Shown here one piece after another: positions 18,029 through 37,783 of a DNA stretch of 64,000 nucleotides. The DNA is from Patescibacteria group bacterium (GTDB taxonomy: Bacteria > Patescibacteriota > Gracilibacteria > UBA1369 > LOWO2-01-FULL-3). Positions within the stretch are counted from its first letter, which is position 1, and every line of letters starts with the position of its first letter. The stretch lies in contig JBBTQK010000001.1 of NCBI GenBank assembly GCA_038065735.1, positions 25,748 to 89,747 of the forward strand, written 5' to 3'. The notes under the pieces were generated by a model, which had not been told where the DNA came from, did no database searches, and saw only the letters and a program-made list of their open reading frames with translations. The position numbers and the translations under genes are program-made.

Positions 18029-18817
18029 ATGGCAGAAACAAAAGAAATAACAAAAAGTGAGATTTTAGCTGATATCGAAATTGATGGGAAACCAGCTCAT
18101 ATTTTGAGAATTGCACCCGATGATTTTTCTGATCAGGACCTTGTTGAACACGCCAGAAATCTTGCCGAGACCAATGCTACTCCAAGAACAGATATTCCAG
18201 ACTCAGCCCAAAAACAAAAGGCACGTGAAACGATATTTAGGATAAGAGAAGCAATGCTAAAAATACCTCTCTTAAAAAAGTTAGCTGCTACCGATGCAAC
18301 TTTAGATGCATTTTACCCTGATACAAGCGCAGAAGAACATTTTAAGTGGTACAGTAAAAGGGGCTCAGTTGAAAAAGGTGACCAAGGTAGTTTTACTCGT
18401 AGAATGTCTCAAGGTCGAGTTTTTGGTATAGAAATGGATGGTAGAATCGCTGCTGTAATGGCGTACGACGACGTAGGAAAAACACAAGATGGTAGACCAG
18501 TGCTGGAATTTTCTAAAGGATCAACTTTGGATCAATACAAAGGCAAAAAACTCAATCCAAACTTAATGAAATTTATGGCTGAATATCTGCAAAATAACGG
18601 TGAAAAACCAATTTGGTACGGCTCTTCAGTAAATCCAAAACTTTTAGGTAATATGCAAACAAGAGGTTGGCATATTACTGAGATGAATGCTGCAGACGAA
18701 CCTGTCCAACTTGCTTACCAAAGAATGCCAGAATATATTGATCAAACAATGATTCCTCAAGGTTATAAAGCCTTTTACGTAGATCCAAAAGTCGATAACA
18801 TTGATTGGGGAGTTTAA
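18029..18817 (+). CDS. Putative GNAT-fold acetyltransferase
   Basis: STLDQYKGKKLN resembles GNAT motif A, preceded by beta strands. Confidence 0.55.
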   Translation: MAETKEITKSEILADIEIDGKPAHILRIAPDDFSDQDLVEHARNLAETNATPRTDIPDSAQKQKARETIFRIREAMLKIPLLKKLAATDATLDAFYPDTSAEEHFKWYSKRGSVEKGDQGSFTRRMSQGRVFGIEMDGRIAAVMAYDDVGKTQDGRPVLEFSKGSTLDQYKGKKLNPNLMKFMAEYLQNNGEKPIWYGSSVNPKLLGNMQTRGWHITEMNAADEPVQLAYQRMPEYIDQTMIPQGYKAFYVDPKVDNIDWGV

Positions 18818-18818: not shown

Positions 18819-20120
18819 TTACTTATCCAAGACCTCCAAGGGATTGAGGGGCTGAGGATTTTTGCCTTTTATCTGACAGGTTGTTTTATCATAGTAAGGT
18901 TCAAATTCTTTGTAATTTTGAACCATTCTCTCCCATTCACCCGGGGCAATATTAATACAGGTTTTTGCAGGATAAACATAAAATGAACCAGTGGAAATAT
19001 TTAATTCTTTATCATCTCTTTCTATAGTGAGATAAGTTTTAAATTTTTCAGAATACTTTTCGTAAATTGGCATCACAAAATTTGCTTCAACTTCTGCAAT
19101 TGGTTGGAATTCTTCTGGAGTTAAAATAATCATTTTTGTCGGATACTTATACATTGCAACAGCATCACCGTGTACGTACAAATCAAGTGATGGAAGGTAA
19201 AGCACACCATGGTTCCATACGCTTAGTCTAATTGCTGGGATATTCAGATTATGTAGCATTCCCTGCAGGAAAATTGTTGGTTCCTGACAGCCAATAACCC
19301 TTTCATCATAAATTCTTCTAAGGCTTAAAGGGTAAGAATTCCAATAGCTGATTGGTGGTTGTACGGTTTTTCCATCAAGATAAACATCCCAAGGGTATTC
19401 ATCATTTGCATGGAAAAAATTTTTCTGACCCCATGAAACTATTTTCTCTACGGCCTGTCTTTGTGTTTTTGCTCCTGCGGCAATTTTGCGAGCGATATTA
19501 TATTGTTGATAACTGGATTCTTCTACAACTGTATTTGGTTCTGGTACTGAAATCTGATGATAAACATTTACCATATTTGGAAGTTCTGGACGACCCTCAT
19601 AAGCATTTACTGAATAGTCGTTAACACTGTCGTTTTGAATGAATATTTTTGCGATTTGAGCTGATTCCATATCCTTCAGTGACCAGGGGAGTCCGGCATT
19701 TTTTTCTGTCCATAAGCCATTAGCTACATTGACTATAAACATTTTAGTGCCCGATTGTGGCAGAGTATATTGCTCAAAAAGGCTTTCAATAATATTTATT
19801 TTCTCCTCATTTTTAAGTATTGGACTATATTTTTTTTCAACTAAAAATTTGGCTAAAAGATCATGTCCTGTAATGATTTTACCGGTAACTTTATTCTTCG
19901 CTTTAATGTTCAGCAGCTCTTGACGTAGACCTAAAAGCGAATCATACGAATCTAGAATTTTAAGTAAGTCTTGAGGCTTAGCTTTTACTGTCGCAGCAGT
20001 GGTCTTTTTCAAATTTAATTCTCCAAAAGTTAACTGACCGTTATTAGATTTATAAATCTTAAATCCACCATAAATTGCCACACTCATAATTACTGCTGAA
20101 ACTATGATCTTCCTATACAT
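18819..20120 (-). CDS. Membrane-anchored transglutaminase-like (Cys-His-Asp) protein
   Basis: N-terminal TM helix; GCQE…LHNLNIPA…NHGV…VHGD pattern. Confidence 0.6.
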   Translation of the reverse strand: MYRKIIVSAVIMSVAIYGGFKIYKSNNGQLTFGELNLKKTTAATVKAKPQDLLKILDSYDSLLGLRQELLNIKAKNKVTGKIITGHDLLAKFLVEKKYSPILKNEEKINIIESLFEQYTLPQSGTKMFIVNVANGLWTEKNAGLPWSLKDMESAQIAKIFIQNDSVNDYSVNAYEGRPELPNMVNVYHQISVPEPNTVVEESSYQQYNIARKIAAGAKTQRQAVEKIVSWGQKNFFHANDEYPWDVYLDGKTVQPPISYWNSYPLSLRRIYDERVIGCQEPTIFLQGMLHNLNIPAIRLSVWNHGVLYLPSLDLYVHGDAVAMYKYPTKMIILTPEEFQPIAEVEANFVMPIYEKYSEKFKTYLTIERDDKELNISTGSFYVYPAKTCINIAPGEWERMVQNYKEFEPYYDKTTCQIKGKNPQPLNPLEVLDK

Positions 20121-20173
20121 GCGGGTAAAATTTTAAATATTCACATTCTGCCAAACTTAGTTACAATACTACT

Positions 20174-20587
20174 ATGAACTATTGGATCATAAAAAGCGAG
20201 CCTGCGACTTATTCTTGGGATAATCTCGTTAAGGACAAAAAGACTTTTTGGAATGGTGTACGCAACTACATGGCCCGCAATAATCTGGCAAAGATGAAGG
20301 TTGGCGATTTGGCTTTCTTTTATCATTCAGGCGATGAACGTCAGATTGTTGGGATTGCCCGTATTATTAAAGAAGCATATCCGGACCCTTCAGCCGATGA
20401 TCCACGTTGGGTGATGGTTGATGTTGAAGCAGTGAAACCAGTCACTAAACCAGTAGAATTAAAACTAATTAAAGAAATTCCAGAACTTAAAAATATCCAT
20501 TTAGTTCGACAGGGCCGACTCTCCGTGAGTGAGATAAATAAAAAAGAATTTGATGTTATTTTAACGCTCGCGCAGACAACTCTTTAA
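20174..20587 (+). CDS. EVE domain protein
   Basis: YWIIKSEP, WNGVRNYMARN, FFYHS and RLSV motifs. Confidence 0.95.
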   Translation: MNYWIIKSEPATYSWDNLVKDKKTFWNGVRNYMARNNLAKMKVGDLAFFYHSGDERQIVGIARIIKEAYPDPSADDPRWVMVDVEAVKPVTKPVELKLIKEIPELKNIHLVRQGRLSVSEINKKEFDVILTLAQTTL

Positions 20588-20608
20588 TAGATAGAAATTC
20601 CTAATTTC

Positions 20609-20637
20609 TTGACAGTTTTTTTGTTTGCGTATAGAAT
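20609..20637 (+). promoter_or_regulatory. sigma70 promoter of the yerC-his operon
   Basis: TTGACA (20609-20614), 17-nt spacer, TAGAAT (20632-20637). Confidence 0.8.
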
Positions 20638-20643
20638 CTGGAC

Positions 20644-20661
20644 GTTTTAACACGTTAATAC
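20644..20661. promoter_or_regulatory. Palindromic operator, candidate YerC/HisR binding site
   Basis: GTTTTAAC-AC-GTTAATAC dyad over the predicted transcription start; resembles my recollection of the Firmicute HisR motif TTTANYNNRNTAAA. Confidence 0.65.
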
Positions 20662-20667
20662 AGTAAT

Positions 20668-20955
20668 ATGTTCGAGCAAGAATTGAAAAATAAGGAAATG
20701 AAAGAGCTTTTTAAGGCAATTACTTCTCTTAAAACAGAAGACGATTGCAAAAAGTTTTTTCGTGATCTTTGCACTTTTGCCGAATTAAAATCTATGTCAG
20801 AGCGTTGGCAGGTTGCCAAACAGGTAGAGCAAAAAATTTCATATAGAAAAATCGCTAAAAATACAGGTTCAAGCACAGCTACAATAACTCGCGTTGCCCA
20901 CTGGGTTCATCATGGCATGGGAGGTTATAAGTTGATTTTGGATCGTATGAAATAA
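20668..20955 (+). CDS. TrpR-like YerC/YecD repressor (HisR-like)
   Basis: FFRDLCT..EL..MSERWQVA and SYRKIA..TGSSTATITRV helix-turn-helix; first gene of the his operon. Confidence 0.92.
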   Translation: MFEQELKNKEMKELFKAITSLKTEDDCKKFFRDLCTFAELKSMSERWQVAKQVEQKISYRKIAKNTGSSTATITRVAHWVHHGMGGYKLILDRMK

Positions 20956-20978
20956 GCGCTTCAAAATAAGTTTATAAC

Positions 20979-21008
20979 AATCCCACCAAATAAGATGGGA
21001 TTTTTTTT
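20979..21008 (+). terminator. Intrinsic terminator (attenuator) between yerC and hisG
   Basis: AATCCCA-10 nt-TGGGATT running into a T8 tract, 11 nt before the hisG ATG. Confidence 0.7.
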
Positions 21009-21019
21009 ATTTAAAATTT

Positions 21020-21628
21020 ATGAATAACATACGCATCGCAATTCAGTCCAAGGGTAAACTCGCCCAGCCAAGTATCGATTTTCTTAAATCACTAGGCTTG
21101 GAATTTGATCTCGCTAACAGATCATGTTTGGTTAAATGCAAGAATGCTCCAGCCGAAATACTTTTTATTCGTGACGACGACATCCCTCAATATGTTGAGA
21201 AGGGAATCGCCGATTTAGGCATCGTTGGTGAGAATATTCTTTACGAAAATAATGCTCAGTTGCAGGTAGTAAAAAAGCTTGGATTTGGCCGCTGTAATCT
21301 AGTTATTGCTGTCCCTAATAAATCCAAGATTTCTGATATTAGTCAACTTTGCGATAAAAATATTGCGACTTCTTTTCCAAATCTTCTTAAGAATTTCTTA
21401 AAACGTGAAAACATCTCTGCGAACGTAATTAAACTCAAAGGTGCCGTAGAAATTGCTCCAAGAGTGAATCTTTCTGATGCGATTTGCGACCTTTGTGAAA
21501 CCGGAAAAACGCTTAAGGAAAACAAATTACGCCAGTTGGATAACATCCTTTGCTCAGAGGCAATTCTCGTAAAATCCCCATTTATCAATCGACCAAACAA
21601 CAAAATTCTCAATCAATTACTAAACTAA
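21020..21628 (+). CDS. hisG: ATP phosphoribosyltransferase, short form
   Basis: IAIQSKG, RDDDIP, DLGIVG, GAVEIAP and DLCETGKTL motifs; no C-terminal regulatory domain. Confidence 0.95.
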   Translation: MNNIRIAIQSKGKLAQPSIDFLKSLGLEFDLANRSCLVKCKNAPAEILFIRDDDIPQYVEKGIADLGIVGENILYENNAQLQVVKKLGFGRCNLVIAVPNKSKISDISQLCDKNIATSFPNLLKNFLKRENISANVIKLKGAVEIAPRVNLSDAICDLCETGKTLKENKLRQLDNILCSEAILVKSPFINRPNNKILNQLLN

Positions 21629-21632
21629 TTAT

Positions 21633-22913
21633 ATGCAAATTCTAAGCACTAAAGACTGGAGTTTAAAAGAAATAATGATTTTCATTAGGCAGAAACGCAG
21701 CCAAAAAACTGATTGCGAAGCTATTGTAAAAAACATTATTTCAAAAATTAGACAAGAAGGCGACGAGGGTATTATTGAACTAACAAAAAAGTTTGATGGC
21801 GTAGAATTAAAAACTCTCACCGTCGCTCAAGCAGAAATAAAAGAAGCTTATTCTCAAATCGATAAGCCAACTTTGACCGCACTAAAAAGGGCCAAATCAA
21901 ATATCACTACTTTTCACAAAACAACTTTTACTGCAAAAGAAAAAATCGTCCAAACCGAACCGGGTGTGAAAATTTGGCGTGAATTCAGACCAATTGAAAA
22001 AGTTGGTTTATACATACCGGGCGGCAAAGCTTCTTATCCTTCCACTGTTTTAATGCTGTCCATTCCAGCAAAGTTAGCATGCTGTGGAGAGGTGATTTTA
22101 TGCACTCCTCCAGATAAGAATGGCAAAGTTTCTGCTAATATTTTAGTCGCTGCAGATCTATGTGGTGTGAAGAAAATTTACAAAGTTGGTGGCGCACAAG
22201 CAATCGCTGCCATGGCTTACGGTACCCAAACAATTCCAAGAGTTTACAAGATTTTTGGCCCAGGAAATCAGTTTGTTACTACTGCAAAAATGCTTTGTTA
22301 TGGACAGGTTGATATTGATATGCCAGCTGGCCCATCTGAGGTTGCCGTGATTGCTGATAAAAAAGCCAAAATTAATTGGGTTGCCGCAGATCTTTTGTCA
22401 CAGCTCGAACACGGTGAAGATTCTCAAGCAATTTTGTTTACTTCTGATCTCAAATTTGCCGAAAAAGTAATTGGCGAAATGCAAAGTCAGACCACTAAAC
22501 TGAGCCGTAAACAAATCATCGAAAAGGCTTTTTCTAAAAGTTTTGCCGTGATTTACAAATCCGAATCTGAGCTTTACCAACTGGTCAATGATTATGCTCC
22601 TGAGCATTTGGAAATCATCAGCAAAGATGAGCAAGAAATTCTCAAAAATATTAACAATGTGGGCTCAGTTTTCTTAGGAGAATATAGCTCCGAACCCCTT
22701 GGAGACTACATTACTGGCGCTAACCACACCTTGCCGACTTCCGAATTTGCCAAGATGTTTTCACCACTTTCTACAGACTCTTTTGGCAAGATGATTCAAA
22801 TCCAAAAAGTGAGTAAAAAAGGCATCACCAGCCTCAAAAATTCTGTCGAAACTCTTGCACTTTCTGAAGGATTGGACGCCCACAAAAATTCTATCAGTAT
22901 TCGTTTTACTTAA
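21633..22913 (+). CDS. hisD: Histidinol dehydrogenase
   Basis: GLYIPGG, GPGNQFV, DMPAGPSE, APEHL and GANHTLPT motifs. Confidence 0.97.
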   Translation: MQILSTKDWSLKEIMIFIRQKRSQKTDCEAIVKNIISKIRQEGDEGIIELTKKFDGVELKTLTVAQAEIKEAYSQIDKPTLTALKRAKSNITTFHKTTFTAKEKIVQTEPGVKIWREFRPIEKVGLYIPGGKASYPSTVLMLSIPAKLACCGEVILCTPPDKNGKVSANILVAADLCGVKKIYKVGGAQAIAAMAYGTQTIPRVYKIFGPGNQFVTTAKMLCYGQVDIDMPAGPSEVAVIADKKAKINWVAADLLSQLEHGEDSQAILFTSDLKFAEKVIGEMQSQTTKLSRKQIIEKAFSKSFAVIYKSESELYQLVNDYAPEHLEIISKDEQEILKNINNVGSVFLGEYSSEPLGDYITGANHTLPTSEFAKMFSPLSTDSFGKMIQIQKVSKKGITSLKNSVETLALSEGLDAHKNSISIRFT

Positions 22914-22917
22914 ATTT

Positions 22918-23946
22918 ATGATTAAGAATTTAGTCAAAAAATCAGTCTTAAATCTCAAGCCATATATTTGCGCTCGCCACCTCTACAAAGAGGGGATTCT
23001 CCTTGATGCTAACGAGAATTCCTTCGGCAGCGTGGTCGGCAAAAACTTAAATCGCTACCCGGATCCAGAGTGCCAATCACTCAAAACTAAATTGGCAGAA
23101 GTTTTAAATGTTAAAGTCGAAAACCTGCTTATTGGCTCTGGATCAGATGAAATCATCGATCTATTAATGCGAGTTTTTTTAGAAAAAAATGACGAGGTGA
23201 TTTTACTTGAACCAACATATGGCATGTATAGAGTCGCCGCAGAAATCAATGAATCCAAAATCAAAGTCTGTAATTTAGATGAGAATTTTCAGATCAATTT
23301 GGCAGAATTAAACAAAACGATGACTAATAAATCCAAATTAATTTTTTGTGCTTCACCAAATAACCCAACTGGTAATTTACTCAAAAAATCAGATCTACTA
23401 AGCATCTGTAAAACCTTTAAAGGATTGTTGATTATTGATGAGGCTTACATCGATTTTGCCGCTAAAGAATCAGTAATAAACGAACTAAATAACTTCCCAA
23501 ATTTAGTAGTTCTGCGTACTTTTTCCAAAGCCTGGGGTCTAGCTGGATTACGTGTTGGTTATGCAATTGCTAACCCTGAAATTATCAATTTTCTCCGCAA
23601 AGTTAAGCCACCATATAACATTAATACACTTTCTGCCAATTTAGTTTTAGCCGCTTTAAATAAGCCAAAAAAACTAAATGAATTTATCAAAAAGATCCAA
23701 AAAGAAAAAACAAATCTCATTCTGCAACTCAAAAAACTCAGCTTCGAAATCTATCCATCCGACGCAAATTTTATTCTGCTAAAAAGTCCAAAAGCCCAAT
23801 ATATCTGCCGAAAACTCGCTACTGACTTCAAAATTATCATTCGTGATTTTTCTGACAAGCCAGGCTTAAAAAACTGTTTTCGTATCACTATTGGTACTGC
23901 AGCACAAAACAAACTACTCATAAATTCTCTTAAAAAAATTATATGA
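22918..23946 (+). CDS. hisC: Histidinol-phosphate aminotransferase
   Basis: LDANEN, NRYPD, PNNPTG, DEAY and RTFSKAWGLAGLRVG motifs; start at ATG 22918. Confidence 0.96.
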   Translation: MIKNLVKKSVLNLKPYICARHLYKEGILLDANENSFGSVVGKNLNRYPDPECQSLKTKLAEVLNVKVENLLIGSGSDEIIDLLMRVFLEKNDEVILLEPTYGMYRVAAEINESKIKVCNLDENFQINLAELNKTMTNKSKLIFCASPNNPTGNLLKKSDLLSICKTFKGLLIIDEAYIDFAAKESVINELNNFPNLVVLRTFSKAWGLAGLRVGYAIANPEIINFLRKVKPPYNINTLSANLVLAALNKPKKLNEFIKKIQKEKTNLILQLKKLSFEIYPSDANFILLKSPKAQYICRKLATDFKIIIRDFSDKPGLKNCFRITIGTAAQNKLLINSLKKII

Positions 23947-24551
23947 AACAGCGTCAACCCAACACGAAACGCACTGCCAAAAACAAGCGCACAACTAATG
24001 AAACAAGTGTCAGAATATCTCTAAATCTTGATGGCACAGGCAAATCCGACATTCAAACAGGTATAGGATTTTTTGATCATATGTTGGATCAATTAGCTAA
24101 ACATTCACTCATTGATCTCAAAATCAAAGCTCAGGGTGATCTACAAATTGACGAACACCACACAATTGAAGATGTTGCTTTGACTCTTGGACAAGCCCTA
24201 AATAAGGGTTTAGCCAAACGTCAGGGGATTAACCGTTATGGTTTTTTGCTCCCCATGGATGAAACATTGGTAGAAGTTGCTATCGATCTCGCTGGTCGCC
24301 CGTATCTGGTTTTTAATGCCAAATTTAAACGTGAATACGTGGGAGATTTTCCAACCGAGATGATGGAACATTTTTTCTATTCTTTGGCTTATTCATTAGG
24401 TGCAACTATCCATATCAATCTGAAATACGGCAAAAACGAGCATCACAAAATCGAAGCAATTTTTAAATGTTTTGCGCGTGCCTTGAGAATGGCCATTGCC
24501 AAAGATCCGCAACTAAATAACTCAATACCATCAACCAAAGGAATATTATGA
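23943..24551 (+). CDS. hisB: Imidazoleglycerol-phosphate dehydratase (monofunctional)
   Basis: DEHHTIED, NEHHKIEA and PSTKG motifs; no N-terminal HAD phosphatase domain. Confidence 0.96.
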   Translation: MKQRQPNTKRTAKNKRTTNETSVRISLNLDGTGKSDIQTGIGFFDHMLDQLAKHSLIDLKIKAQGDLQIDEHHTIEDVALTLGQALNKGLAKRQGINRYGFLLPMDETLVEVAIDLAGRPYLVFNAKFKREYVGDFPTEMMEHFFYSLAYSLGATIHINLKYGKNEHHKIEAIFKCFARALRMAIAKDPQLNNSIPSTKGIL

Positions 24552-25138
24552 TAGGAATAATCGATTATGGCGCGGGCAACTTACAAAGTGTAAAGAACGC
24601 TCTACAAGCCATCAAACAACCATTTAGGGTCATTACTAACTTTGCGGAATTTAACTCTGTGGACAAAATAATTTTGCCAGGAGTTGGAGCTGCTGCTTTT
24701 GCGATGCAACAACTCAAAAAGCAGAATTTAATCACCGCCATTCAAAAAACTAAAAAACCTTTTTTGGGAATTTGTCTTGGCTTACAGCTTTTGGCAGAGT
24801 TTTCTGAAGAAGGACAAACCGCCTGTTTAGGCCTCATTAAAGGCAATATTAAAAGATTTTCAGAGGACTTGAAAGTTCCTCAAATTGGCTGGAATAAAGT
24901 CAAAACGATCAATAAAACTCCGCTAACTGATGGACTGAATCCCGAAAATTATTTCTATTTTGTTAACTCTTATTATCTCGAATTTTCTAAACAATATGCA
25001 ATTGCTACTGCCGATTATATCGAAACTTTTACTTCCATTCTTAAATATAAAAATTTCTACGCTACACAGTTTCACCCTGAGAGATCAGGCAAAATTGGCC
25101 TTCAACTACTTTCTAATTTCTGCAACAAATGCAAATAA
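24548..25138 (+). CDS. hisH: Imidazole glycerol phosphate synthase glutaminase subunit
   Basis: DYGAGN, PGVG, GICLGLQ and QFHPE motifs. Confidence 0.96.
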   Translation: MIGIIDYGAGNLQSVKNALQAIKQPFRVITNFAEFNSVDKIILPGVGAAAFAMQQLKKQNLITAIQKTKKPFLGICLGLQLLAEFSEEGQTACLGLIKGNIKRFSEDLKVPQIGWNKVKTINKTPLTDGLNPENYFYFVNSYYLEFSKQYAIATADYIETFTSILKYKNFYATQFHPERSGKIGLQLLSNFCNKCK

Positions 25139-26607
25139 TCCCAGCAATTGACATCATCAATGGTCAATGTGTCCGACTCACAAAAGGTGATTTTAATTCT
25201 CAAACTAGTTATTCCAACGATCCTCTGACTCTAGCCAAAAATTTTGCCAAACAAAATATCGATTTTTTACATATTGTTGATCTTGATGGCGCGAGATTTC
25301 AAAAATCCTGCAATCAAAAACTTATTCTACAGATTGCCAAAACAATTAATAAACCAGTAGAAGTTGGTGGGGGAATAAGGTCTCTAGAAAGCGCCGAAAT
25401 GTACCTGAGAAATGGAGTCAGCCGCATAATTCTAGGCACCAAAGCCATTGAAAACAAAAGTTTTCTGAAATTTTTACTTAAAAAATATGGCCCAGAAAAA
25501 ATAATTCTTGGATTAGATGTTAAAAATAATCAACTTGGTATTAACGGCTGGCAGAATTTTAATTCTCAAAAAAACGTCTTTGAATTTGCTAAAGAAATTA
25601 AAAAAATGGGAGTCAAAACAGTTGTAGTTACAGATATAAATAAAGATGGGACCCTCACTACTCCAAATTTTAAACTTTTCCAAAAAATCCAAAATCTTGG
25701 CTTAAACGTCATAGCTTCCGGCGGAGTTTCTACTCTAAATTCTCTACAGAAACTCAAAAAACTAAATATCACAGGCGCAATTATTGGCAAAGCTCTCTAC
25801 GAAAATAAACTCGATCTCAGCGAGGTTGTAAAAACCTTCACACCAAAATCTAATCTCACTAAACGTATCATTCCTTGTTTAGACATCATTGAAGACAAAG
25901 TAGTAAAAGGTGTGAATTTCCAGAAAATGCAGGTCATCGGTGACGCCGTAAAAATTGCTCAAAAATATTATCAGCAAGGTGCTGACGAGCTGGTTTTCCT
26001 AGATATTAAAGCCACAAAAGATAATAAAAAAACAATCATTGAAACCGTTAAAAAAATCGCCGCAAAAATATTTATTCCATTTACAGTTGGTGGCGGTATT
26101 AGTTCTCTCAGCAGAATTAAAAAAATTCTCAGAGCGGGTGCAGACAAAGTTTCCCTCAACACAGCCGCCGTTTTAAATCCCCAACTAATCAATAGAGCCG
26201 CCAAACAATTCGGATCTCAAGCCATAGTTATTGCAATTGATGTCAAAAAAGAAGATCAAACTTATCAGGTCTACATCAAAGCCGGCACTCAAAAAGCCAA
26301 TCTAGAAGCCGTTTCTTGGGCTAAAACAGTCGCGAAACTCGGAGCTGGTGAAATTCTTCTCACTTCTATTGATAGAGACGGCACAAAAAAAGGTTATGAC
26401 ATTGAGCTACTAAATAAAATCTCAAAAGCAGTAAATATTCCTGTAATTGCCTCTGGTGGAGCTGGTAGCAAAAACGATATCAAAGCAGCTCTAACACAAG
26501 GCCAAGCCGATGCCGTCTTAGCGGCAAGTATTTTTCATCAAAAAAAAGTCACCATCAAGTCACTTAAAAATTATTTATTTAAATCCAATTTACCAATACG
26601 TTTATGA
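25129..26607 (+). CDS. hisA/hisF: HisA-HisF fusion protein
   Basis: N-half IIPAID…G.CVRL..G, HIVDLDGA, DGTL (HisA); C-half KRIIPCLD..VVKG, ADELVFLDI, TSIDRDGT (HisF); one open frame. Confidence 0.93.
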   Translation: MQIIPAIDIINGQCVRLTKGDFNSQTSYSNDPLTLAKNFAKQNIDFLHIVDLDGARFQKSCNQKLILQIAKTINKPVEVGGGIRSLESAEMYLRNGVSRIILGTKAIENKSFLKFLLKKYGPEKIILGLDVKNNQLGINGWQNFNSQKNVFEFAKEIKKMGVKTVVVTDINKDGTLTTPNFKLFQKIQNLGLNVIASGGVSTLNSLQKLKKLNITGAIIGKALYENKLDLSEVVKTFTPKSNLTKRIIPCLDIIEDKVVKGVNFQKMQVIGDAVKIAQKYYQQGADELVFLDIKATKDNKKTIIETVKKIAAKIFIPFTVGGGISSLSRIKKILRAGADKVSLNTAAVLNPQLINRAAKQFGSQAIVIAIDVKKEDQTYQVYIKAGTQKANLEAVSWAKTVAKLGAGEILLTSIDRDGTKKGYDIELLNKISKAVNIPVIASGGAGSKNDIKAALTQGQADAVLAASIFHQKKVTIKSLKNYLFKSNLPIRL

Positions 26608-27203
26608 ACGATCTAATCAAAGAAATCGACTGGCAAAAAGTAAATGACCTAATTCCAGCCGTAATCCAAGACGCTAATACAAGCCAAATTCTCATGCTCG
26701 GCTATATGGACTCAGTAGCCCTAGCCAGAACTTTAAAAACCAAAAAAATCTGGTTTTTTAGCCGTAGTAAAAATCGTCTATGGATGAAAGGTGAAACCAG
26801 TAACGACATTCTTAAACTCAAAAATATCGCTTTAGACTGCGATAATGACACTCTCCTTATACAAGCTGAACCCCAAGGTCCGACCTGTCACACCAGTAAT
26901 ATTTCCTGCTTCGCAAATTCACAAGAAAATATTTTTAACGAACTCTACGAAGTCATCAATTCTCGCAAGCAGGAATCTCCAAAAACTTCTTACACCAGCT
27001 TTTTAATGAATAAAGGTCTCAAAAAAATCTGTGCCAAAATCGCTGAAGAATCGAAAGAAGTTATCAAAGCCGCCAACCAAGAAACCGATAAACGATTGAT
27101 TGAGGAAAGCGTCGATGTCCTCTACCACTTGTTTGTTTTGCTAAACTATAAAGACCTGAAAATTCAGGATCTAATTAAGGAAATTAGAAAACGTAGAAAA
27201 TAA
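26604..27203 (+). CDS. hisIE: Bifunctional PR-AMP cyclohydrolase / PR-ATP pyrophosphatase
   Basis: LWMKGETS, DCDND, PTCHT…SCF, SYT, KIAEE and D.LYH motifs. Confidence 0.96.
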   Translation: MNDLIKEIDWQKVNDLIPAVIQDANTSQILMLGYMDSVALARTLKTKKIWFFSRSKNRLWMKGETSNDILKLKNIALDCDNDTLLIQAEPQGPTCHTSNISCFANSQENIFNELYEVINSRKQESPKTSYTSFLMNKGLKKICAKIAEESKEVIKAANQETDKRLIEESVDVLYHLFVLLNYKDLKIQDLIKEIRKRRK

Positions 27204-27217
27204 ACAATCTAATATTC

Positions 27218-27940
27218 TCAAATTCCCAACTCGTGTAACCGTTGTTTAATCCAGGGTTTGATCTGCGCAATTGGACCCAAGAACTTTAGCTTTGTGGCCA
27301 TTAATAGAATTCCAACCTCATCTTCAGAATTTCTAGGGCCATCTTGAACTACATCCAATAATGAATCTGTCAAAATTGGATTGCGAAAACGACCACTAAG
27401 CAAAACGTTATCTTTAGCCGCTTGTCTTGGCCCAGAAGTCCATGAACCAAAAGTATCATGCATAGCCAAGGTTCCCCCTTGTACTAATTTTGGCAACCAA
27501 AGATCTAAATCCCTTTCTACAGATTTTCTATCATGTGAGCCATCAATAAAAAGTAAATCAACTTCATCAGGACAAGCTGCAAGAGCCGCTCTACTTGTAG
27601 AATTAGCCACAACAGGGACAACTAAATCGTTTAATCCCATTCTTGCCATATTCGCATCAAAATTAGCCTTTATATCTAAATGGTCACCACTACTTCTACT
27701 TCTATGGTGTTCTGCAGATCCATCAAAATGATCAACTGCATGTACAGGCACTCCGCCACCTATCCTGCTCCCTAAACCAAGAAACGCCGTAGATCTGCCC
27801 ATGTAGGAACCAACCTCTACTATTCCTTGTTTAGCTTGTGCTGCTAACTGATATAACCTTGCACCTTCAAACAAGGTCACTTGCCCGGGAACACTGTGTG
27901 CCTCCGTTAAATCCCTATGAATAACATCTAGTCTAGCCAT
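27218..27940 (-). CDS. Class I SAM-dependent methyltransferase (Methyltransf_24-like)
   Basis: VEVGSYMGRST, LLFIDGSH and MHD motifs. Confidence 0.85.
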   Translation of the reverse strand: MARLDVIHRDLTEAHSVPGQVTLFEGARLYQLAAQAKQGIVEVGSYMGRSTAFLGLGSRIGGGVPVHAVDHFDGSAEHHRSRSSGDHLDIKANFDANMARMGLNDLVVPVVANSTSRAALAACPDEVDLLFIDGSHDRKSVERDLDLWLPKLVQGGTLAMHDTFGSWTSGPRQAAKDNVLLSGRFRNPILTDSLLDVVQDGPRNSEDEVGILLMATKLKFLGPIAQIKPWIKQRLHELGI

Positions 27941-27967
27941 TTTAATTTTTAAAAGGCCACATTCTAG

Positions 27968-29086
27968 CTAATGTGAATGACTATGTCCATGCAAATCTTT
28001 TGGAGCATCTTTACTCAAGAATAAAGCTGCGAAGAAAGTGGTGATTGGTACTGCCAAAACCAAACCAATACTGCCAACTAAAGTCGCGATAATTTGTTCT
28101 GCCACGAATTCATAATTCAAAACTTCTATAAACGCCCTGGACCTATCAATAAATAACAACAAAAGCGGCATATATGATCCTGCGTAAATCAGAACAAGCG
28201 TATTCACCATAGAAGAAATATGATCCCGCCCAACTCTCATCGCACTTGCAAACAATTCCCAAAATCCCATTTTTTTATTAGCCGACTTCAATTCCTGCAC
28301 TACAGAAGCCTGTGAAATAGTTACATCATCCAAAATTCCCAAAATTCCAATAATCATGCCGGCCACAACTAAACCGCGTACATCTATATTCATAAGCGTA
28401 TCTAGCTTCAAAAAATTAATTTCTTCAGATGACAATCCACTCAAATTTCCAATACCAGCAAAATATTTAGCCATCAGTCCTATTCCAATCAAAGTAACAA
28501 TCGTAGAAACTCCAGCAATCGTCGTCTTTTTATTAATTCCATGACCAAGATAAAAAGTCGCAGGCACAATCACTAAAATTCCCATAACTGCAGCCCAAAT
28601 CGCACTGCCCCCAGCCAAAATACTCGGTAAAATAATCTTAAAAATAACCCAAAAACTAAAAACCATTCCAATCAATGATCCAGCCCCTTGGTTTCCAGTA
28701 ATCGCCAAAACCAACACCACAAAAACTACAAATAACCAAAGCAAAACATTTTGTCTTTGGAAATCTAAAATATAATAAAAAGTTTCCCCATTCTCACTAG
28801 TATAACCTGTTAAAATAACCTTATCCCCAGCCTTAAACTCGCGAGGTACACTAAGAACACTGGAATCCTCAGTCACATCAATATTATGTCCGGCATTCTC
28901 ACCTTCATTAAATTGCACTTCCAAAACCTGCGTATCTGTATCTGGTGACTCCGAAACAATTTTCACAATTTCTGCCTTATAATTGACGGCATTCTCAGGT
29001 GATTCATTCTTTTCAGAAATCGGAAAAAATACAAACAACAAAACTACCACAACCAGCGCCACCAAATTATAAATTATTTTTTTCAT
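27968..29086 (-). CDS. YibE/F family membrane protein
   Basis: GILDDVTISQ, GRDHISSMVNTLVLIYAG motifs; multiple TM helices; His-rich tail. Confidence 0.92.
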   Translation of the reverse strand: MKKIIYNLVALVVVVLLFVFFPISEKNESPENAVNYKAEIVKIVSESPDTDTQVLEVQFNEGENAGHNIDVTEDSSVLSVPREFKAGDKVILTGYTSENGETFYYILDFQRQNVLLWLFVVFVVLVLAITGNQGAGSLIGMVFSFWVIFKIILPSILAGGSAIWAAVMGILVIVPATFYLGHGINKKTTIAGVSTIVTLIGIGLMAKYFAGIGNLSGLSSEEINFLKLDTLMNIDVRGLVVAGMIIGILGILDDVTISQASVVQELKSANKKMGFWELFASAMRVGRDHISSMVNTLVLIYAGSYMPLLLLFIDRSRAFIEVLNYEFVAEQIIATLVGSIGLVLAVPITTFFAALFLSKDAPKDLHGHSHSH

Positions 29087-29144
29087 GAGTTTTTAATAAA
29101 TTCTCCACTAATTTACTCCTTAAAAATCTTTTTACAAATTTCGC

Positions 29145-29172
29145 TGTAAGAATATAATGCAAGGCACGTCTA
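29145..29172 (+). promoter_or_regulatory. Candidate autoregulatory ECF-type promoter
   Basis: TGTAAG, 16-nt spacer, CGTCTA immediately upstream of the ECF sigma gene. Confidence 0.45.
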
Positions 29173-29184
29173 ACTATACGCTTC

Positions 29185-29712
29185 ATGAATTGGAACAACC
29201 CAAAAAACGACTTTCTCGATTCATACGAAAAGTACTCTGATGCAATCTTCAGACATTGTTACTTTAGAATGAATAACAGAGAAAGGGCCAAAGAGCTAAT
29301 GCAGGATGCGTTTATGAAGACTTGGGAATATATCTCAAAAGGAAATATAATTGAAAACATTAGAGCTTTCCTCTACAGAACGGCAAATAACCTCATCATT
29401 GATGACGCACGTAAGAAAAAAGAAGCTTCTCTTGAAGAATTAAACGAGAAAGGATTTCAACCAAGCTACGATAAGCAAGATGAGATAAAAGTGCATATCG
29501 AATACACTAAAATCATGAGCGTCATCAATAAATTACCATCAAATCACAGAGACCTAATAATAATGCGTTATGTAGACGAACTCTCTCCAAAAGAAATCGC
29601 CCACGTAGTACAGGAATCAGAAAACGCTGTATCGGTGCGTCTAAACCGATCTATCAAGAAACTAAGAGATTTAATCAAATATAATAACTCACCTCACAAT
29701 GAAATCGAATAA
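29185..29712 (+). CDS. ECF RNA polymerase sigma factor
   Basis: Region 2 (AKELMQDAFMKTW, FLYRTANNLIID) and region 4 (EIA…V.VRL.R). Confidence 0.93.
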   Translation: MNWNNPKNDFLDSYEKYSDAIFRHCYFRMNNRERAKELMQDAFMKTWEYISKGNIIENIRAFLYRTANNLIIDDARKKKEASLEELNEKGFQPSYDKQDEIKVHIEYTKIMSVINKLPSNHRDLIIMRYVDELSPKEIAHVVQESENAVSVRLNRSIKKLRDLIKYNNSPHNEIE

Positions 29713-30724
29713 TCGTGACCCCAGAGGGATGTTCGAGAATTCTAAGGACATCAATCTTACTAAATCAGAGAAACAAGAGGGTAGAGACATTCTCGCGAGA
29801 TTTATTGATGCAAATCCTGTAGAAAAATCGGAACACTCACATAATAGAGCCAGCATTTTTAAAAACCTATTTAATGTTTTTTTAAAGCCAATGCCGGCGT
29901 TCTTTGCCCTTTTATTACTCGTTACTGGTGGTACTAGTCTTGCAGCAGAATACAGCGTGCCAGGAGACCTCTTATACCCCGTCAAAATTCACGTTAACGA
30001 AGAAGTTCGTAGCGCGCTGGCTTTTTCTGAGGAATCAAAAGCTTATATTGCTTTAGATAGAGCAGAAGAACGTCTCGAAGAGGCTGAAGTTTTAGCTGTA
30101 AAAGGTAAGTTAACTCCAGAAGTTCGTATTGATCTTGAGGTCAGATTTACTAGACACCTGGAGCAGGCCCAAAAAAGAGCGGCTACGGCAAAAATCAATT
30201 CTGATATTAAAGCCAAACTTTATGTACATGAAGAGACCTTAACAAAAATATCTAATACTCAACAAGAACCAGTCAAAGTTGAAATCGATGCCTTAAATAC
30301 AAGAATTAGGGGCCAACTCAGAGATTCTAAAAAATCAGATGCTCCTGTGAATAGTGAAACTCACAACTCTAGGAGAAATAGTGATAAAGTCGACGACCTT
30401 GAGAGTGTCGTCAGGCTCAAATCAAGAGCTGATGTAAAAATAGAAATAAAGAAGAGGGATCATACTGACTCAGAAGAAGAAGTAGAAGAAAAAGAAGAAA
30501 CTGAAGCAGTTGATCAAGAAGTTCATGGAGAATCCGTTGAAGAATCTCGCCGTGATCCTGTCCCCCTTGCCCTCCCAGAAACAATTCTAAACGAGCCGGT
30601 TCAGACTATTCTTCCAGTTAGAACCATTATCCCAGTTGAGACTCTATTATTACCAACCAGAATCCTACTTCCAACTAGGACCATACTACCAACTAGAACT
30701 CTACTTCCCGTCAGAGGGCTCTAG
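29699..30724 (+). CDS. Putative membrane anti-sigma factor (DUF5667-like)
   Basis: Overlaps the sigma gene; one TM helix then SVPGDLLYPVK…E and ERLEEA motifs. Confidence 0.75.
   Translation: MKSNNRDPRGMFENSKDINLTKSEKQEGRDILARFIDANPVEKSEHSHNRASIFKNLFNVFLKPMPAFFALLLLVTGGTSLAAEYSVPGDLLYPVKIHVNEEVRSALAFSEESKAYIALDRAEERLEEAEVLAVKGKLTPEVRIDLEVRFTRHLEQAQKRAATAKINSDIKAKLYVHEETLTKISNTQQEPVKVEIDALNTRIRGQLRDSKKSDAPVNSETHNSRRNSDKVDDLESVVRLKSRADVKIEIKKRDHTDSEEEVEEKEETEAVDQEVHGESVEESRRDPVPLALPETILNEPVQTILPVRTIIPVETLLLPTRILLPTRTILPTRTLLPVRGL
30599..30715 (+). repeat. Degenerate 18-bp coding tandem repeat, about 6 units of (R/E/Q)T(I/L)LP(T/V)
   Basis: QTILPV RTIIPV ETLLLPT RILLPT RTILPT RTLLPV. Confidence 0.8.
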
Positions 30725-30732
30725 CAGCCAAC

Positions 30733-32142
30733 TTATTCTTCGAAGGGTATATCAACTTCCTCCCCGTAAAATGGGATGTGTACATCGTTGTATCCGTTTT
30801 CTCCCAAGGCTTTTGAGAATGCTTCCAATTGAGTTTGCTCACCATGCACCAAAAAAATCTTCTTTAAACTCTTAATTCTAGTTATGTAATCCAGCAAATC
30901 ACTTCTATCCGCATGTCCCGAAAAAGCATCCATGACATAAACGCTGGCTTTTACCTGATGTGAATCACCAAAAATATTTACACTTTTGTTGCCATCTACA
31001 AGTTTTCTGCCCAAAGTTTCTTCAGCCTGATAACCAACAATCAAAACAGTATTTCGTGGGTCTTCGATGTTATTTTTTAGATGATGTAGAATTCTACCGT
31101 GCTCACACATACCTGAAGCCGCAATAATAATCATTGGGCCTTGTTTTTCGTTTAGAGACTTGGATTCCTCAACGTCACGTGTATATTTTAATTCTCCAAA
31201 ACCAAATGGATTGTCCCCGTGTTCCACAAATTCATCAAAAACTTTCTTATCAAAACACTCCGGATGCGCCCTAAACACCTCTGTTAAATTACCAGCCAAA
31301 GGACTATCCACATAAATTGGAATAGCCGGAATCATGTTTTTCTTATTCAAAACATTCAAATGATAAACAACTTCCTGTGCACGTTCCAAAGCAAAAGCCG
31401 GAATAATTAATTTACCACCTTTTTTACAAACTTCGTTAACCACGACCGCTAGGTCATTATCCACTGTATCCAAATTAGCATGCAAACGATTACCATACGT
31501 ACATTCTGTAATCAAAATGTCAGTCTCTGGAATTGGCTGTGGATCCCGCAAAATTGGTAGTCCTCTACGTCCCAAATCTCCGGTAAAACAAAATCTTAAA
31601 TATTTTTTAGATTTTTTGTCATGCAGTACAAGGTGAGTCAGCGCAGAACCCAAAATATGTCCCGCATCATAAAAACAGGCTACCACGCCTTCGGCGACTA
31701 CAAAACTTTGTTCATAATTAACTGATTGGAACATCTTCAAGGTTTCCTCAGCATCAGCCAGCGTGTACAAGGGTTCTAATTTTTCTACATCTTTATTTTT
31801 CTTTTTTTTCTTAAGCCATTTAACTTCACTTTCCTGAATAAAAGCACTATCCGCCAACATGAAATTTGTTAGATCGCGAGTTGCATGAGTACAGTAAATT
31901 GGTCCTTTAAAACCCTGTTTTACAAGTACTGGCAAATCTCCACTATGATCCATATGTGCATGTGAAAGAATCACACAGTCCACTTCTTTTGGATCAAATT
32001 TTAGGTGTAAATTTTTTTCATCAGATTCCTTACGCTTACCCTGAAACATACCGCAATCCAGGAGGATTTTTTTACCATTAATTGTTAGCAAATGCTTTGA
32101 ACCGGTTACTTCACCAGCTGCTCCGGCAAATTTAATTTTCAT
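30733..32142 (-). CDS. MBL-fold beta-CASP ribonuclease
   Basis: SHAHMDHSG, AGHILGS, ECTYG and FSGHAD…VHGE motifs. Confidence 0.93.
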   Translation of the reverse strand: MKIKFAGAAGEVTGSKHLLTINGKKILLDCGMFQGKRKESDEKNLHLKFDPKEVDCVILSHAHMDHSGDLPVLVKQGFKGPIYCTHATRDLTNFMLADSAFIQESEVKWLKKKKKNKDVEKLEPLYTLADAEETLKMFQSVNYEQSFVVAEGVVACFYDAGHILGSALTHLVLHDKKSKKYLRFCFTGDLGRRGLPILRDPQPIPETDILITECTYGNRLHANLDTVDNDLAVVVNEVCKKGGKLIIPAFALERAQEVVYHLNVLNKKNMIPAIPIYVDSPLAGNLTEVFRAHPECFDKKVFDEFVEHGDNPFGFGELKYTRDVEESKSLNEKQGPMIIIAASGMCEHGRILHHLKNNIEDPRNTVLIVGYQAEETLGRKLVDGNKSVNIFGDSHQVKASVYVMDAFSGHADRSDLLDYITRIKSLKKIFLVHGEQTQLEAFSKALGENGYNDVHIPFYGEEVDIPFEE

Positions 32143-32152
32143 GAAAGAGAGG

Positions 32153-33286
32153 TTATTTTGGATCTATTATAACAACTTTATTCCTAATCATCGATTGAAT
32201 TTCTTCACTATAATCTCCATAGCCAATAAATCTTTCAATCCACTCTTTACTTTCTTCTTCTGTCATTAATCTGGATTGAGAATTTGCGCTCTTCATAGGG
32301 ATTAATTGCACTTCACTACTACCGTCTTCTTTTAAAGTAATTCCTATAGCCAATTCCTCCTGAGTAGCCTTGGACCAATATTGATCAAACACAAAATTTC
32401 CAAGAGAATAAAAAATAAATTTATCTTTATAGATCTCAAAATTTTGTACCACATGAGGATGATGACCAATCACAAAATCCGCTCCGGCATCGACAAAGTC
32501 GTGACCCGGATCAACTTGCATAGCGCTGTTCGCACTGTTTTTATACTCAATTCCCCAATGTACTGAAACAATCACGTAATCCACATGTGCATCCAATCTC
32601 CTAATCATTTCCAACGCATCTTCGAGATCTAATTTATGCGTAATATCCTGGAAACACGCAAAGGCGTATTTTTTTTCGCCAATTTCACCATAATAAATAC
32701 TTTCTGGATCGGCTTCACTTGGATGTCCACACCAGCCTAGTTCGCTTTGTTCCAAAGCGGTGATTGTGCTATCACGACCTTTTGATCCTTGGTCTAAAGC
32801 ATGATTGTTAGAAATCGACAACACATCAAATCCACTATTTTTTAAGAATGGGGCAATGTCTTCATTAAAACTAAAAACCATCGCAGTTCCACCACTTTTA
32901 CCTTTGCCACTAATTGGACCTTCTAGGTTTCCAAACACAACATCCGCTTGCGGGAATAGGCCCTTCGGGCCTGTTTCAAACTTTGCAAAAAGATAATCAA
33001 GGCCACCATTCCTATCGGCCATTGTACGTACGTATCGGCCCAACATCATATCTCCAAAAGCCAGAATTTTAAAATCTGCATTTTCTTCTTCCTCAATGTC
33101 TTCAATTTCAATTTTCTCAATATCATCTTCGGTTTTTTCAGCCGTTTTAACTGCCATCTGTTTTATAGCCACAGGCTGTGCTCCAGTCAAATTCATCGCA
33201 TCTGTAAAAACCAACTTGCCACTTTGAATCTGGTACATGACCACGCCAGCCAAAACAAGCCCAAAAAAAATAGTAAATTTCTTCAT
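32153..33286 (-). CDS. CapA/PGA_cap family metallophosphoesterase
   Basis: GDMML, NLEGP, NNHALD, HWG.EY, GHHPHV and YSLGNFVFDQ motifs. Confidence 0.92.
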   Translation of the reverse strand: MKKFTIFFGLVLAGVVMYQIQSGKLVFTDAMNLTGAQPVAIKQMAVKTAEKTEDDIEKIEIEDIEEEENADFKILAFGDMMLGRYVRTMADRNGGLDYLFAKFETGPKGLFPQADVVFGNLEGPISGKGKSGGTAMVFSFNEDIAPFLKNSGFDVLSISNNHALDQGSKGRDSTITALEQSELGWCGHPSEADPESIYYGEIGEKKYAFACFQDITHKLDLEDALEMIRRLDAHVDYVIVSVHWGIEYKNSANSAMQVDPGHDFVDAGADFVIGHHPHVVQNFEIYKDKFIFYSLGNFVFDQYWSKATQEELAIGITLKEDGSSEVQLIPMKSANSQSRLMTEEESKEWIERFIGYGDYSEEIQSMIRNKVVIIDPK

Positions 33287-33287
33287 A

Positions 33288-33545
33288 TTAATTTAAAAGC
33301 AATTCGTCCAATTTCCCCATAGCATCCAATGCTTTCAAATCATCAAAACTGCCAATATGACGAGAATTAACAAAAACCTGCGGTGTATCTGAACGATCTC
33401 CAGATTTAGCAAGCATTTCAGCCTCCAATTCCTTATCCTGATCAATAACTTTTTCATCAAAAGCAACGTTTTTTGACTTCAACATTTCTCTGCATTGAGC
33501 CGAAAATGGACAATAACTTTTAGTATAAATCACAACTTCAGCCAT
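33288..33545 (-). CDS. Glutaredoxin (Grx3-like, CPFS active site)
   Basis: YTKSYCPFS and TPQVFV..RHIG motifs; start at ATG 33545. Confidence 0.88.
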   Translation of the reverse strand: MAEVVIYTKSYCPFSAQCREMLKSKNVAFDEKVIDQDKELEAEMLAKSGDRSDTPQVFVNSRHIGSFDDLKALDAMGKLDELLLN

Positions 33546-33614
33546 AAAATTTCTGATTAACGAATAAATTGGATAAAAGCTAACAGATAGCGTAGCAAAA
33601 TGCAATTTTGTGGA

Positions 33615-34085
33615 CTACTCGTGGTGGTATTCTTTTCCATTAATTATGCAGAATCCTCTATAAATCTGTTCCAGCAAAAACAATCTCACCATTTGATGAG
33701 TGAACGTCATTTTTGACAGCGCAATTGTTGCATTGGCCTTCTTTTTTACTTCTTCACTAAGCCCAAACGGGCCACCAATAACAAAAACCACCTCTCTTCC
33801 TTCATCCACATACTTCTCCAAAAATCCCGCAAATTCCACCGAATTCATTTCCCGCCCTTTTTCATCCAACAAAATCACCACCTCATCTTTTTGTAAATTC
33901 TGAAGAATTTGTTTCCCCTCAAAATCTTTGCAATGCTCACGCGTAAACGCCTTGCTCGCCGCAACTTCTTTTAAGGTTACGATTTCCAGCTTCGCAAAAG
34001 CCTTTAGTCTTTTAACTAGCTCTGCCAGGCCTTCTTCAATATATTTATCTTTTGTCTTCCCAACCTGAATAATTCTGATTTTCAT
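33615..34085 (-). CDS. rlmH: 23S rRNA m3-pseudouridine1915 methyltransferase RlmH
   Basis: MKIRII.VGK, FVIGGPFG, MTFTHQ and EQIYR…YH motifs; start at ATG 34085. Confidence 0.95.
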   Translation of the reverse strand: MKIRIIQVGKTKDKYIEEGLAELVKRLKAFAKLEIVTLKEVAASKAFTREHCKDFEGKQILQNLQKDEVVILLDEKGREMNSVEFAGFLEKYVDEGREVVFVIGGPFGLSEEVKKKANATIALSKMTFTHQMVRLFLLEQIYRGFCIINGKEYHHE

Positions 34086-36443: not shown

Positions 36444-36458
36444 ATGTTTAAATTAAAT

Positions 36459-37742: not shown

Positions 37743-37783
37743 TGGACTAGATTGAAACTGGGGCTAATTTAGCTTTATTAAAG

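Follow-up and report, generated by a model that had tools for sequence, protein, structure and literature searches.

A HisR-type repressor gene that probably doubles as the attenuator leader of its own histidine operon in Patescibacteria

Classical transcription attenuation uses throw-away leader peptides, and the repressor and the attenuator are separate devices, as in the textbook trp case with TrpR and trpL. PMC9413887 describes a logic of his and trp leader-peptide attenuation that matches what we find in a stretch of DNA from a Patescibacteria group bacterium (GTDB lineage Bacteria; Patescibacteriota; Gracilibacteria; UBA1369; LOWO2-01-FULL-3; assembly GCA_038065735.1, contig JBBTQK010000001.1, positions 25,748 to 89,747 of the forward strand). 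This stretch of 64,000 nucleotides (nt), numbered from its first letter, is called the window throughout, and the whole assembly is 1.41 Mb. The element in question is hisR, a 95-codon gene that stands first in a histidine biosynthesis (his) operon. From its sequence and that of its relatives, we predict that hisR is probably both the repressor and the ribosome-mediated attenuator leader of this operon. The first-pass annotation of the window had suggested that one open reading frame (ORF) supplies both repression and attenuation; the present comparison lends support to that idea, as all the proposed elements are present and conserved together. A literature search, with most subscription journals outside its coverage, returned no description of hisR or of any repressor ORF as the attenuator leader of its own operon.

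The resemblance to the enterobacterial his and trp attenuators extends to several features. The biosynthetic genes are immediately preceded by an intrinsic terminator, the alternative hairpin shares the left arm of that terminator, cognate codons of a translated ORF lie just 5' of the antiterminator arm, and the stop codon falls inside the switch region, with a possible 1:2 pairing when ribosomes are absent. Unlike those leaders, which are dedicated peptides of 14–30 residues, the hisR product is a predicted DNA-binding repressor of 95 residues with a function of its own, so that each regulatory codon would at the same time specify part of a folded protein. In addition, hisR has three His codons (H-x-x-H-H), whereas the his leader has a run of seven. 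Rfam returned nothing at gathering score between 20000 and 22000, and no match to His_leader (RF00514) at E values up to 10. Only sub-threshold matches to Trp_leader (20.1 bits against a gathering score of 41, E 0.57) and Phe_leader (20.4 bits against 55, E 2.5) were returned.

A second point of comparison is the HisR (YerC) regulons of Firmicutes, Actinobacteria, and others. In the available text of PMC9413887, the branch that includes YerC of Bacillus subtilis is defined as HisR, a repressor of his genes, and histidine stimulates DNA binding in vitro by HisR of Ruminococcus gnavus. Going by that text, the window shares with these regulons the protein family, the operator type TTTA-N6-TAAA, and a hisR gene that is linked to his genes and, as predicted here, autoregulated. 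However, the same portion of the source, which does not deal with Patescibacteria, reports RNA attenuators with His leader peptides only for lineages without HisR and T-boxes, whereas the window would combine HisR and an attenuator in one ORF.

Two further systems bear on the use of an ordinary gene as a leader. The nearest precedent is rph-pyrE of E. coli, where, according to PMC2784333, translation of the 3' end of a functional full-length gene governs an attenuator before the next gene. The cases differ in that rph is no regulator of pyrE, and that the signal for hisR would be a specific amino acid. In rph-pyrE, a ribosome that reaches the stop codon near the terminator is said to suppress termination, the signal reportedly being the speed of the polymerase, which depends on uridine triphosphate. 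In contrast, 24 nt separate the hisR stop codon from the terminator arm, and the codon falls in the antiterminator loop; a ribosome that gets there should promote termination. With a ribosome modelled at the stop, the terminator keeps a probability of 0.92. In the Bacillus pyr operon, pyrR is the first gene, intercistronic terminator/antiterminator switches follow, and the regulator protein binds RNA. The window is similar in having the regulator as first cistron followed by an intercistronic switch, and different in that hisR has a DNA operator and the switch reaches into its own coding sequence with cognate codons.

The hisR ORF spans 20668–20955 on the + strand and encodes 95 amino acids (aa) that end in ...RVAHWVHHGMGGYKLILDRMK, as read from the sequence and the ORF list, with its TAA stop codon at 20953–20955. 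In Pfam it matches Trp_repressor (PF01371, E 1.3e-26), and the ORF after it matches HisG. The nearest solved chains (3FRW, 3KOR, and 3G1C) match over the full length with E values from 2.7e-21 to 2.7e-19, and 3G1C is handled as a HisR in PMC9413887. By sequence and fold, the ORF belongs with the HisR/YerC-YecD branch of the Trp_repressor family, and its relatives carry the source-given names YerC/YecD. We therefore take it as a predicted HisR/YerC orthologue, with a co-repressor role for histidine that is likewise predicted from the family.

Upstream of hisR, a sigma-70-like promoter (20609–20637, + strand; TTGACA at 20609–14, a 17-nt spacing, and TAGAAT at 20632–37) is identified by consensus match only; its score of 11/12 is the best in 20100–21700, and the TTGACA/TAtAAT arrangement is also visible upstream of hisR in most relatives. 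Immediately 3' of the −10 box lies a HisR-type operator, GTTTTAACACGTTAATAC (TTTTA-N6-TAATA; 20644–20661, no strand assigned), with 9/10 core positions and a shuffle p of 0.03. It fits the HisR consensus, given as TTTA-N6-TAAA in PMC9413887, and near-perfect operators (GTTTTAayryrTTAAAAC) occur at the same place in most relatives. The 100 nt that precede hisR contain an operator core matching at 9/10 positions or better in 38/52 loci that have both a terminator and a His cluster (defined below), in 4/12 loci with a terminator only, and in 8/37 loci without a terminator. The earlier description of the ORF as a repressor of the YerC/TrpR type is thus in keeping with both the PF01371 match and a HisR-type operator at its own promoter, and family membership together with the conserved operator suggests that the hisR product represses its own operon. 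The layout on the + strand is completed by a 64-nt spacer after hisR and by hisG at 21020.

The 3' end of hisR and the spacer can form two alternative hairpins. In the first, 20924–20942 pairs with 20960–20978 at 18 of 19 positions (three G·U pairs and one G×A mismatch at 20934/20968, checked by hand), and the helix is extended by UGGGA (20918–22) with UCCCA (20981–85) and by UGG (20913–15) with CCA (20986–88). These pairings, as first proposed, are correct base for base, and RNAfold returns exactly this 20913–20988 hairpin as the minimum free energy structure of 20905–20992 (−23.8 kcal/mol, z −3.50, 0/200 dinucleotide shuffles as stable). Its 5' arm, segment 2 of the antiterminator (20913–20942, + strand), is coding sequence for G-M-G-G-Y-K-L-I-L-D, the hisR stop codon lies in its loop, and its 3' arm, segment 3 (20960–20988, + strand), contributes its last 10 nt as the 5' arm of the terminator. 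The second hairpin is this intrinsic terminator (segments 3:4; 20979–21008, + strand), which consists of AAUCCCA (20979–85), a 10-nt loop, UGGGAUU (20996–21002), and a U run to 21008, with a folding free energy of −7.5 kcal/mol. Positions 20981–20988 are common to both helices, which are mutually exclusive, and the claim that the hairpin sequesters the left arm of the terminator before hisG thereby holds in the window.

The terminator stands directly before the genes it would regulate. The hisG ATG at 21020 is 11 nt past the end of the U run, and a promoter scan gives no promoter-like site between the terminator and hisG. A separate hisG promoter inside the hairpin was considered and rejected, as neither the scan nor the eye finds a −35/−10 pair there. 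hisG has no evident Shine-Dalgarno sequence, and the 11 A/U-rich nt at 21009–21019 (ATTTAAAATTT) fill the space between the U run and the ATG; by inference only, the terminator hairpin in full-length transcripts might also affect initiation of hisG translation. A simple terminator scan, which allows loops of at most 8 nt, misses the 10-nt loop of this terminator; over 21001–41000 it gave 17 terminator-like sites and no excess over the 15.1 in shuffles, and it is therefore uninformative on how often the organism uses intrinsic terminators.

We add to the earlier annotation a candidate segment 1, or anti-antiterminator, in the coding sequence at 20861–20905 (+ strand). In the absence of a ribosome it pairs with the 5' arm of the antiterminator in the minimum free energy fold of 20860–21002 (−36.7 kcal/mol, z −2.72). 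Such a pairing would complete the classical four-segment layout with 1:2 pairing as in trp. Across relatives, cognate segments 1 and 2 pair only slightly better (−20.4 kcal/mol) than non-cognate ones (−19.2; 124/10,000 permutations), a weak covariation that lends segment 1 weak support.

The survey of relatives covered genomes of Patescibacteria. A homologue was present in 24/41 close relatives (E ≤ 1e-3), in 83/205 genomes of the order (E ≤ 1e-10), and in 69/401 genomes sampled across the phylum (E ≤ 1e-12), and the names of the near relatives point to genomes of the Peregrinibacteria, Gracilibacteria, and Parcubacteria type, with protein names that suggest a Peregrinibacteria-like member of the candidate phyla radiation for the window itself. 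From 133 collected loci, 105 were analysed; these scored 70 bits or more against the query, had a complete ORF, and extended 100 nt or more beyond its 3' end. Weaker paralogues were dropped, as were ORFs truncated at the edge of a contig (L013, L018, and L091 among them) and loci with short flanks (L008 and L076). A terminator was called at −7 kcal/mol or below, and a His cluster wherever the last 25 codons contain two or more His no further than three codons apart.

In these relatives, the gene after hisR is mostly a HisRS-like gene followed by hisG, or hisG directly. A hairpin with a U run begins 20–30 nt past the hisR stop in nearly all relatives that have hisR before his genes. Where hisR stands immediately before hisS or hisG and a terminator is present (38 loci), a median of 23 nt separates the last U of the run from the start codon that follows (range 9–137, and at most 40 nt in 30/38). 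This gap leaves no room for a second promoter, and his transcripts must therefore read through the terminator.

The alternative hairpin has a coding 5' arm (codons G-x-G-G-Y-K-L...) and a 3' arm after the stop codon, and the two arms covary. In an alignment-free comparison of duplex energies, the coding arm pairs with the post-stop segment of its own locus at −23.8 kcal/mol and with those of other loci at −15.6 (43 non-redundant of 49 loci; 0/10,000 permutations). A repeat of the test gave −26.2 and −16.5 (36 of 44 loci; 0/10,000), and for a control pair of segments the own and foreign partners did not differ (3595/10,000). RNAalifold on a MAFFT alignment of 36 loci recovered a base helix of GGNGG with CCNCC, in which the wobble base of the Gly codon and its partner form C-G (10), U-A (8), U-G (6), G-C (2), A-U (1), and G-U (1) and change together in 12 sequences. 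In this helix, 90.3% of cells are paired, compared with 84.3% in shuffles (0/500) and 47–62% with the partner slid, and 15 cells show double changes against 5.2 expected (0/500). CCNCC is also the left arm of the terminator in most loci, such as L002, L003, and L008. Comparative evidence of this kind argues that the antiterminator is a real, covarying structure.

The three His codons of the window (CAC at 20899–901 and CAT CAT at 20908–910 and 20911–913) are the only ones in the ORF, as the earlier annotation had noted and as the sequence and ORF count confirm. They occupy 20899–20913 (+ strand) as the proposed sensing codons, and the antiterminator arm begins at 20913. Among the 105 loci, 55 with a terminator have a His cluster and 12 do not, while 4 without a terminator have a cluster and 34 do not (Fisher p 4e-13, a value inflated by shared ancestry). 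A C-terminal His cluster is present in every one of the loci that have a terminator and hisR immediately before hisS/hisG (38/38).

The cluster also tracks the position of the gene. Copies divergent from hisS-hisG (L066, L075, and L081, with HWLKH, DWMKN, and RWLTH) have the cluster in 0/3 cases and no terminator, the same is true of copies after hisIE (L073 and L086, with QWLNH and AWLKD; 0/2), and L130, 3 nt from hisG with RWLNK, has neither. Within the H-W-x-H-H motif, the middle position is His in 47/67 loci with a terminator and in 5/38 without, whereas the first (48/67 and 21/38) and the third (52/67 and 17/38) differ less. The HH pair is thus specific to the leader arrangement, being absent from his-linked copies that are divergent, downstream, or abutting. 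The solved Firmicute HisR-like proteins have R, N/Q, and Y/W in place of the three His, so the family as a whole does not require His there.

Outside the cluster, His codons are avoided. No His occurs before the last 25 codons in 54/55 genes with a terminator and a cluster, compared with 8/12 genes with a terminator only and 22/38 without a terminator, and the mean number of such His is 0.09 with a terminator and 0.76 without. His is the most depleted residue of the ORF body (log2 ratio −2.9) and, apart from a negligible count of Cys, the most enriched in the tail. Such avoidance would not be predicted by a purely protein-level role of the motif.

In some lineages without the core His, His-rich tails are found. 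L087 and L018 have no core His (AAWLNGG and AAWLNDG) and end in ...PRPHHIR and ...AKAHHAH; directly past the stop, GGGCAU...AUGCCC competes with a terminator, GCCCUUG...CGAGGGC-U6, before hisG, in a compact layout of the classical type. In a second subfamily (ARISKWL...), HH or HHH occurs in tails of 10–20 residues (L016, L017, L092, L120, L125, L128, and L131), and in several of these loci, tail codons 18–25 nt 3' of the His pair with the left arm of the terminator. For example, GGGAAAAGG pairs with CCUCUUCCC in L120 and L125, and CGGGGAAGGGCU pairs with AGCCCCUUUCCG in L128, upstream of hisG. These sequences suggest that some lineages without the core His carry re-built attenuators with His-rich tails, a likely re-invention of the device.

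We also modelled folding with a ribosome at different positions. Partition functions were computed up to the right arm of the terminator, with a ribosome footprint from 15 nt before to 8–14 nt after the first A-site base kept unpairable, in an equilibrium model that ignores the order of folding. In the window, the probability of the terminator is 0.92 with no ribosome and 0.01–0.05 with the A site on the first His codon (20899), compared with 0.90–0.92 when the HH pair occupies the A site with its first or its second codon. The caution attached to the earlier annotation, that the critical codon may be the first His, is borne out by this model for the window. The HH pair lies 6–9 nt before the base of the helix. 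Approximately this spacing is where a structure abuts the entrance of the decoding ribosome in frameshift sites. In a scan of masks over 55 loci, a switch appeared in 27. A switch codon could be defined in 24 loci; 16 of them place it between −3 and +2 codons from the last clustered His, and 17 place it beyond the first one. The scan across loci gives the proposed switch moderate support.

On the basis of structures, covariation, position, and codon distribution, all of which are observed, we infer HisR repression, ribosome stalling, and histidine-dependent read-through as follows. A single promoter (20609–20637) would drive the his operon with hisR as its first cistron. In a first layer of control, HisR bound to the operator at 20644–20661 would repress its own operon. 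In a second, the last ~40 codons of hisR would act as a ribosome-mediated transcription attenuator. A ribosome close behind RNA polymerase would cover the coding arm at 20913–20942, the terminator at 20979–21008 would form, and transcription would stop after hisR. When charged tRNA-His is scarce, the ribosome would wait at the His codons, in the window chiefly at 20899–901. The waiting ribosome would leave the coding arm free to pair with 20960–20988, the left arm of the terminator would be sequestered, and polymerase would enter hisG. One gene of 95 codons could in this way sense free histidine through its protein product and the charging of tRNA-His through its own translation.

The strongest competing explanation, which we consider unlikely, is that a constitutive and partly leaky terminator only fixes how much his-enzyme mRNA is made relative to hisR mRNA. 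The hairpin over the stop codon would then tune efficiency or stabilise the 3' end of hisR, perhaps through general coupling of transcription and translation and independently of histidine, and the His would be features of the protein. Several results weigh against a histidine-sensing leader, and a number of them favour this explanation. His at the first and third motif positions is common in copies without a terminator too, which makes part of the motif a feature of the protein; these two His seem in part to have been protein features that were co-opted. A search of sequencing runs listed 8 DNA runs with the sequence of the window and no RNA run. The thresholds for terminators and His clusters were set after inspection of the data, and the association between the two is largely vertical inheritance. 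With ancestry corrected by 5 independent pairs on well-supported branches, 2.7 were concordant, 0 discordant, and 2.3 unchanged (sign test p 0.25), a test that is not significant and is underpowered because a protein of 75 columns gives a poorly resolved tree.

The structural data have their own weak points for the attenuator reading. The mask scan is flat in 28/55 loci, 24 of which fold to the terminator at any ribosome position. In the window, the model leaves the terminator intact at both HH codons, yet HH is the most leader-specific feature, and in the main subfamily the key pairing nucleotides are only 1–10 nt past the last His codon. The two helices share few or no nucleotides in some relatives; in the family of L007, L048, L049, L058, and L059, the hairpin abuts the terminator with little overlap. 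The fraction of the terminator arm that is paired to coding sequence in the pre-terminator fold (median 0.67, compared with 0.43 for shuffled coding sequence) is a poor discriminator.

The arrangement is also not confined to his genes. The module of hisR, hairpin, and terminator precedes radical-SAM or SPASM enzymes in L036, L042, L068, L069, and L017, as well as a peptidase M15 (L005), a GNAT protein (L092), and an AstE/AspA-like protein (L071); in L077 it precedes a long aminotransferase with a partial hisC-like match. Two TrpR-type copies before trpE (L019 and L100) have a terminator-like hairpin a few nt from the stop and no Trp codons in their tails, so a layout of repressor, terminator, and operon can exist without cognate codons. 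However, a leaky terminator leaves unexplained why His clusters reappear in tails exactly where the core His are lost, why HH is missing from his-linked copies that are unable to be leaders, why the ORF body is free of His in all but one of the terminator-and-cluster genes, and why Firmicute HisR proteins lack these residues. We regard the histidine-sensing attenuator as the probable reading in spite of the points above.

Much less probable, in our view, is that a trans-acting termination factor binds the hairpin, either HisR acting on RNA or uncharged tRNA-His in the manner of a T-box. PyrR and TRAP are proteins that act on RNA and provide the model for the former. A regulator gene immediately upstream of an attenuator is also found at the Bacillus pyrR-pyrP junction, and the conserved GGNGG is superficially like part of the T-box motif. 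Against this, TrpR-family proteins bind DNA and a matching DNA operator is present; beyond the sub-threshold leader matches given above, no T-box or other Rfam match appears at E values up to 10; the element lies inside coding sequence, where a specifier domain would not fit; and the U of the UGGN motif that binds the tRNA acceptor end is not conserved in the alignment. A T-box reading of GGGUGG in the window was rejected, with no Rfam T-box at E up to 10 in 20000–22000 and an element that lies within coding sequence. A last alternative, that hairpin and His codons arose by chance in AT-rich sequence and regulate nothing, is scarcely credible: the fold of the longer stretch 20890–21015 is unexceptional (z −1.72, 13/200 shuffles folding equally well), but the hairpin itself reaches a z of −3.5, and conservation and covariation over dozens of genomes and many families contradict it.

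The genes proposed to be under this control are hisG (short form), hisD, hisC, hisB, hisH, a hisA-hisF fusion, and hisIE, at 21020–27203 (+ strand; from Pfam and the ORFs), for which Pfam gives HisG, histidinol dehydrogenase, class I/II aminotransferase, IGPD, glutamine amidotransferase, a fused HisA/HisF, and a bifunctional HisIE. The hisA and hisF genes are apparently fused in a 492-aa ORF at 25129–26607 (+) with two His_biosynth stretches. In most relatives, a HisRS-like gene of 430 aa with an anticodon-binding domain (Pfam) lies between hisR and a short-form hisG (L002:1857-3161, with ~20 equivalents). The operon of the window is without this gene, and its HisG is 202 aa; the sole HisRS homologue found in the genome, at 5319–6560 (−) of the window, has 29% identity to the operon-type HisRS-like protein. 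Upstream of the operon lie an EVE-domain protein (20174–20587, +; PF01878, E 4e-50) and a 433-aa ORF without a Pfam match (18819–20120, −), and an ORF of 262 aa at 18029–18817 likewise has no Pfam match. A second, distant TrpR-family paralogue (L029, G000:C4:18621-18878, −) is on another contig of the same genome, with 29% identity to hisR (E 3e-8).

Paralogues and modules beyond the his genes offer further observations. Several of the radical-SAM enzymes downstream of the module in L036, L042, L068, L069, and L017 have SPASM or 4Fe-4S domains. The TrpR-type paralogues L019, L027, L096, L097, and L100 are directly upstream of the anthranilate synthase gene trpE (Pfam). In L027, L096, and L097, a palindrome like TGTACTGGTGAATCGATACA follows, which resembles the TrpR operator as given in PMC9413887. 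In L098 (2367-3578), a TrpR-like paralogue ends in ...KNWWQENYSRSRC, with two adjacent Trp codons; a strong terminator comes next, and then a radical-SAM/SPASM gene. Here Trp codons may play the part that His codons play in hisR, or the arrangement may be of quite another kind.

More broadly, and here our confidence falls a little short of even, in Patescibacteria the ORF of a transcription factor may itself have become the sensor of an attenuator, with free histidine read through the protein and tRNA-His charging through translation. The device would have been built at least twice, with the His of the core motif and, one or more times, with His-rich tails and new hairpins, and it may extend to radical-SAM targets and to other amino acids, as the WW tail and terminator of L098 would suggest.

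As for what this would mean, the element is small and portable and suited to coupled in vitro systems, and it offers a rule for finding hidden attenuators, namely to inspect the 3' ends of first-cistron genes besides 5' leaders. If the prediction is true, regulatory codons can sit within a folded, functional protein, and selection would act at the same time on the residues, on synonymous sites through RNA pairing, and against the codon in the rest of the ORF. Both regulatory devices would be held in one small gene, which would be economical for genomes of 1–1.5 Mb in a phylum whose gene regulation is almost unstudied.

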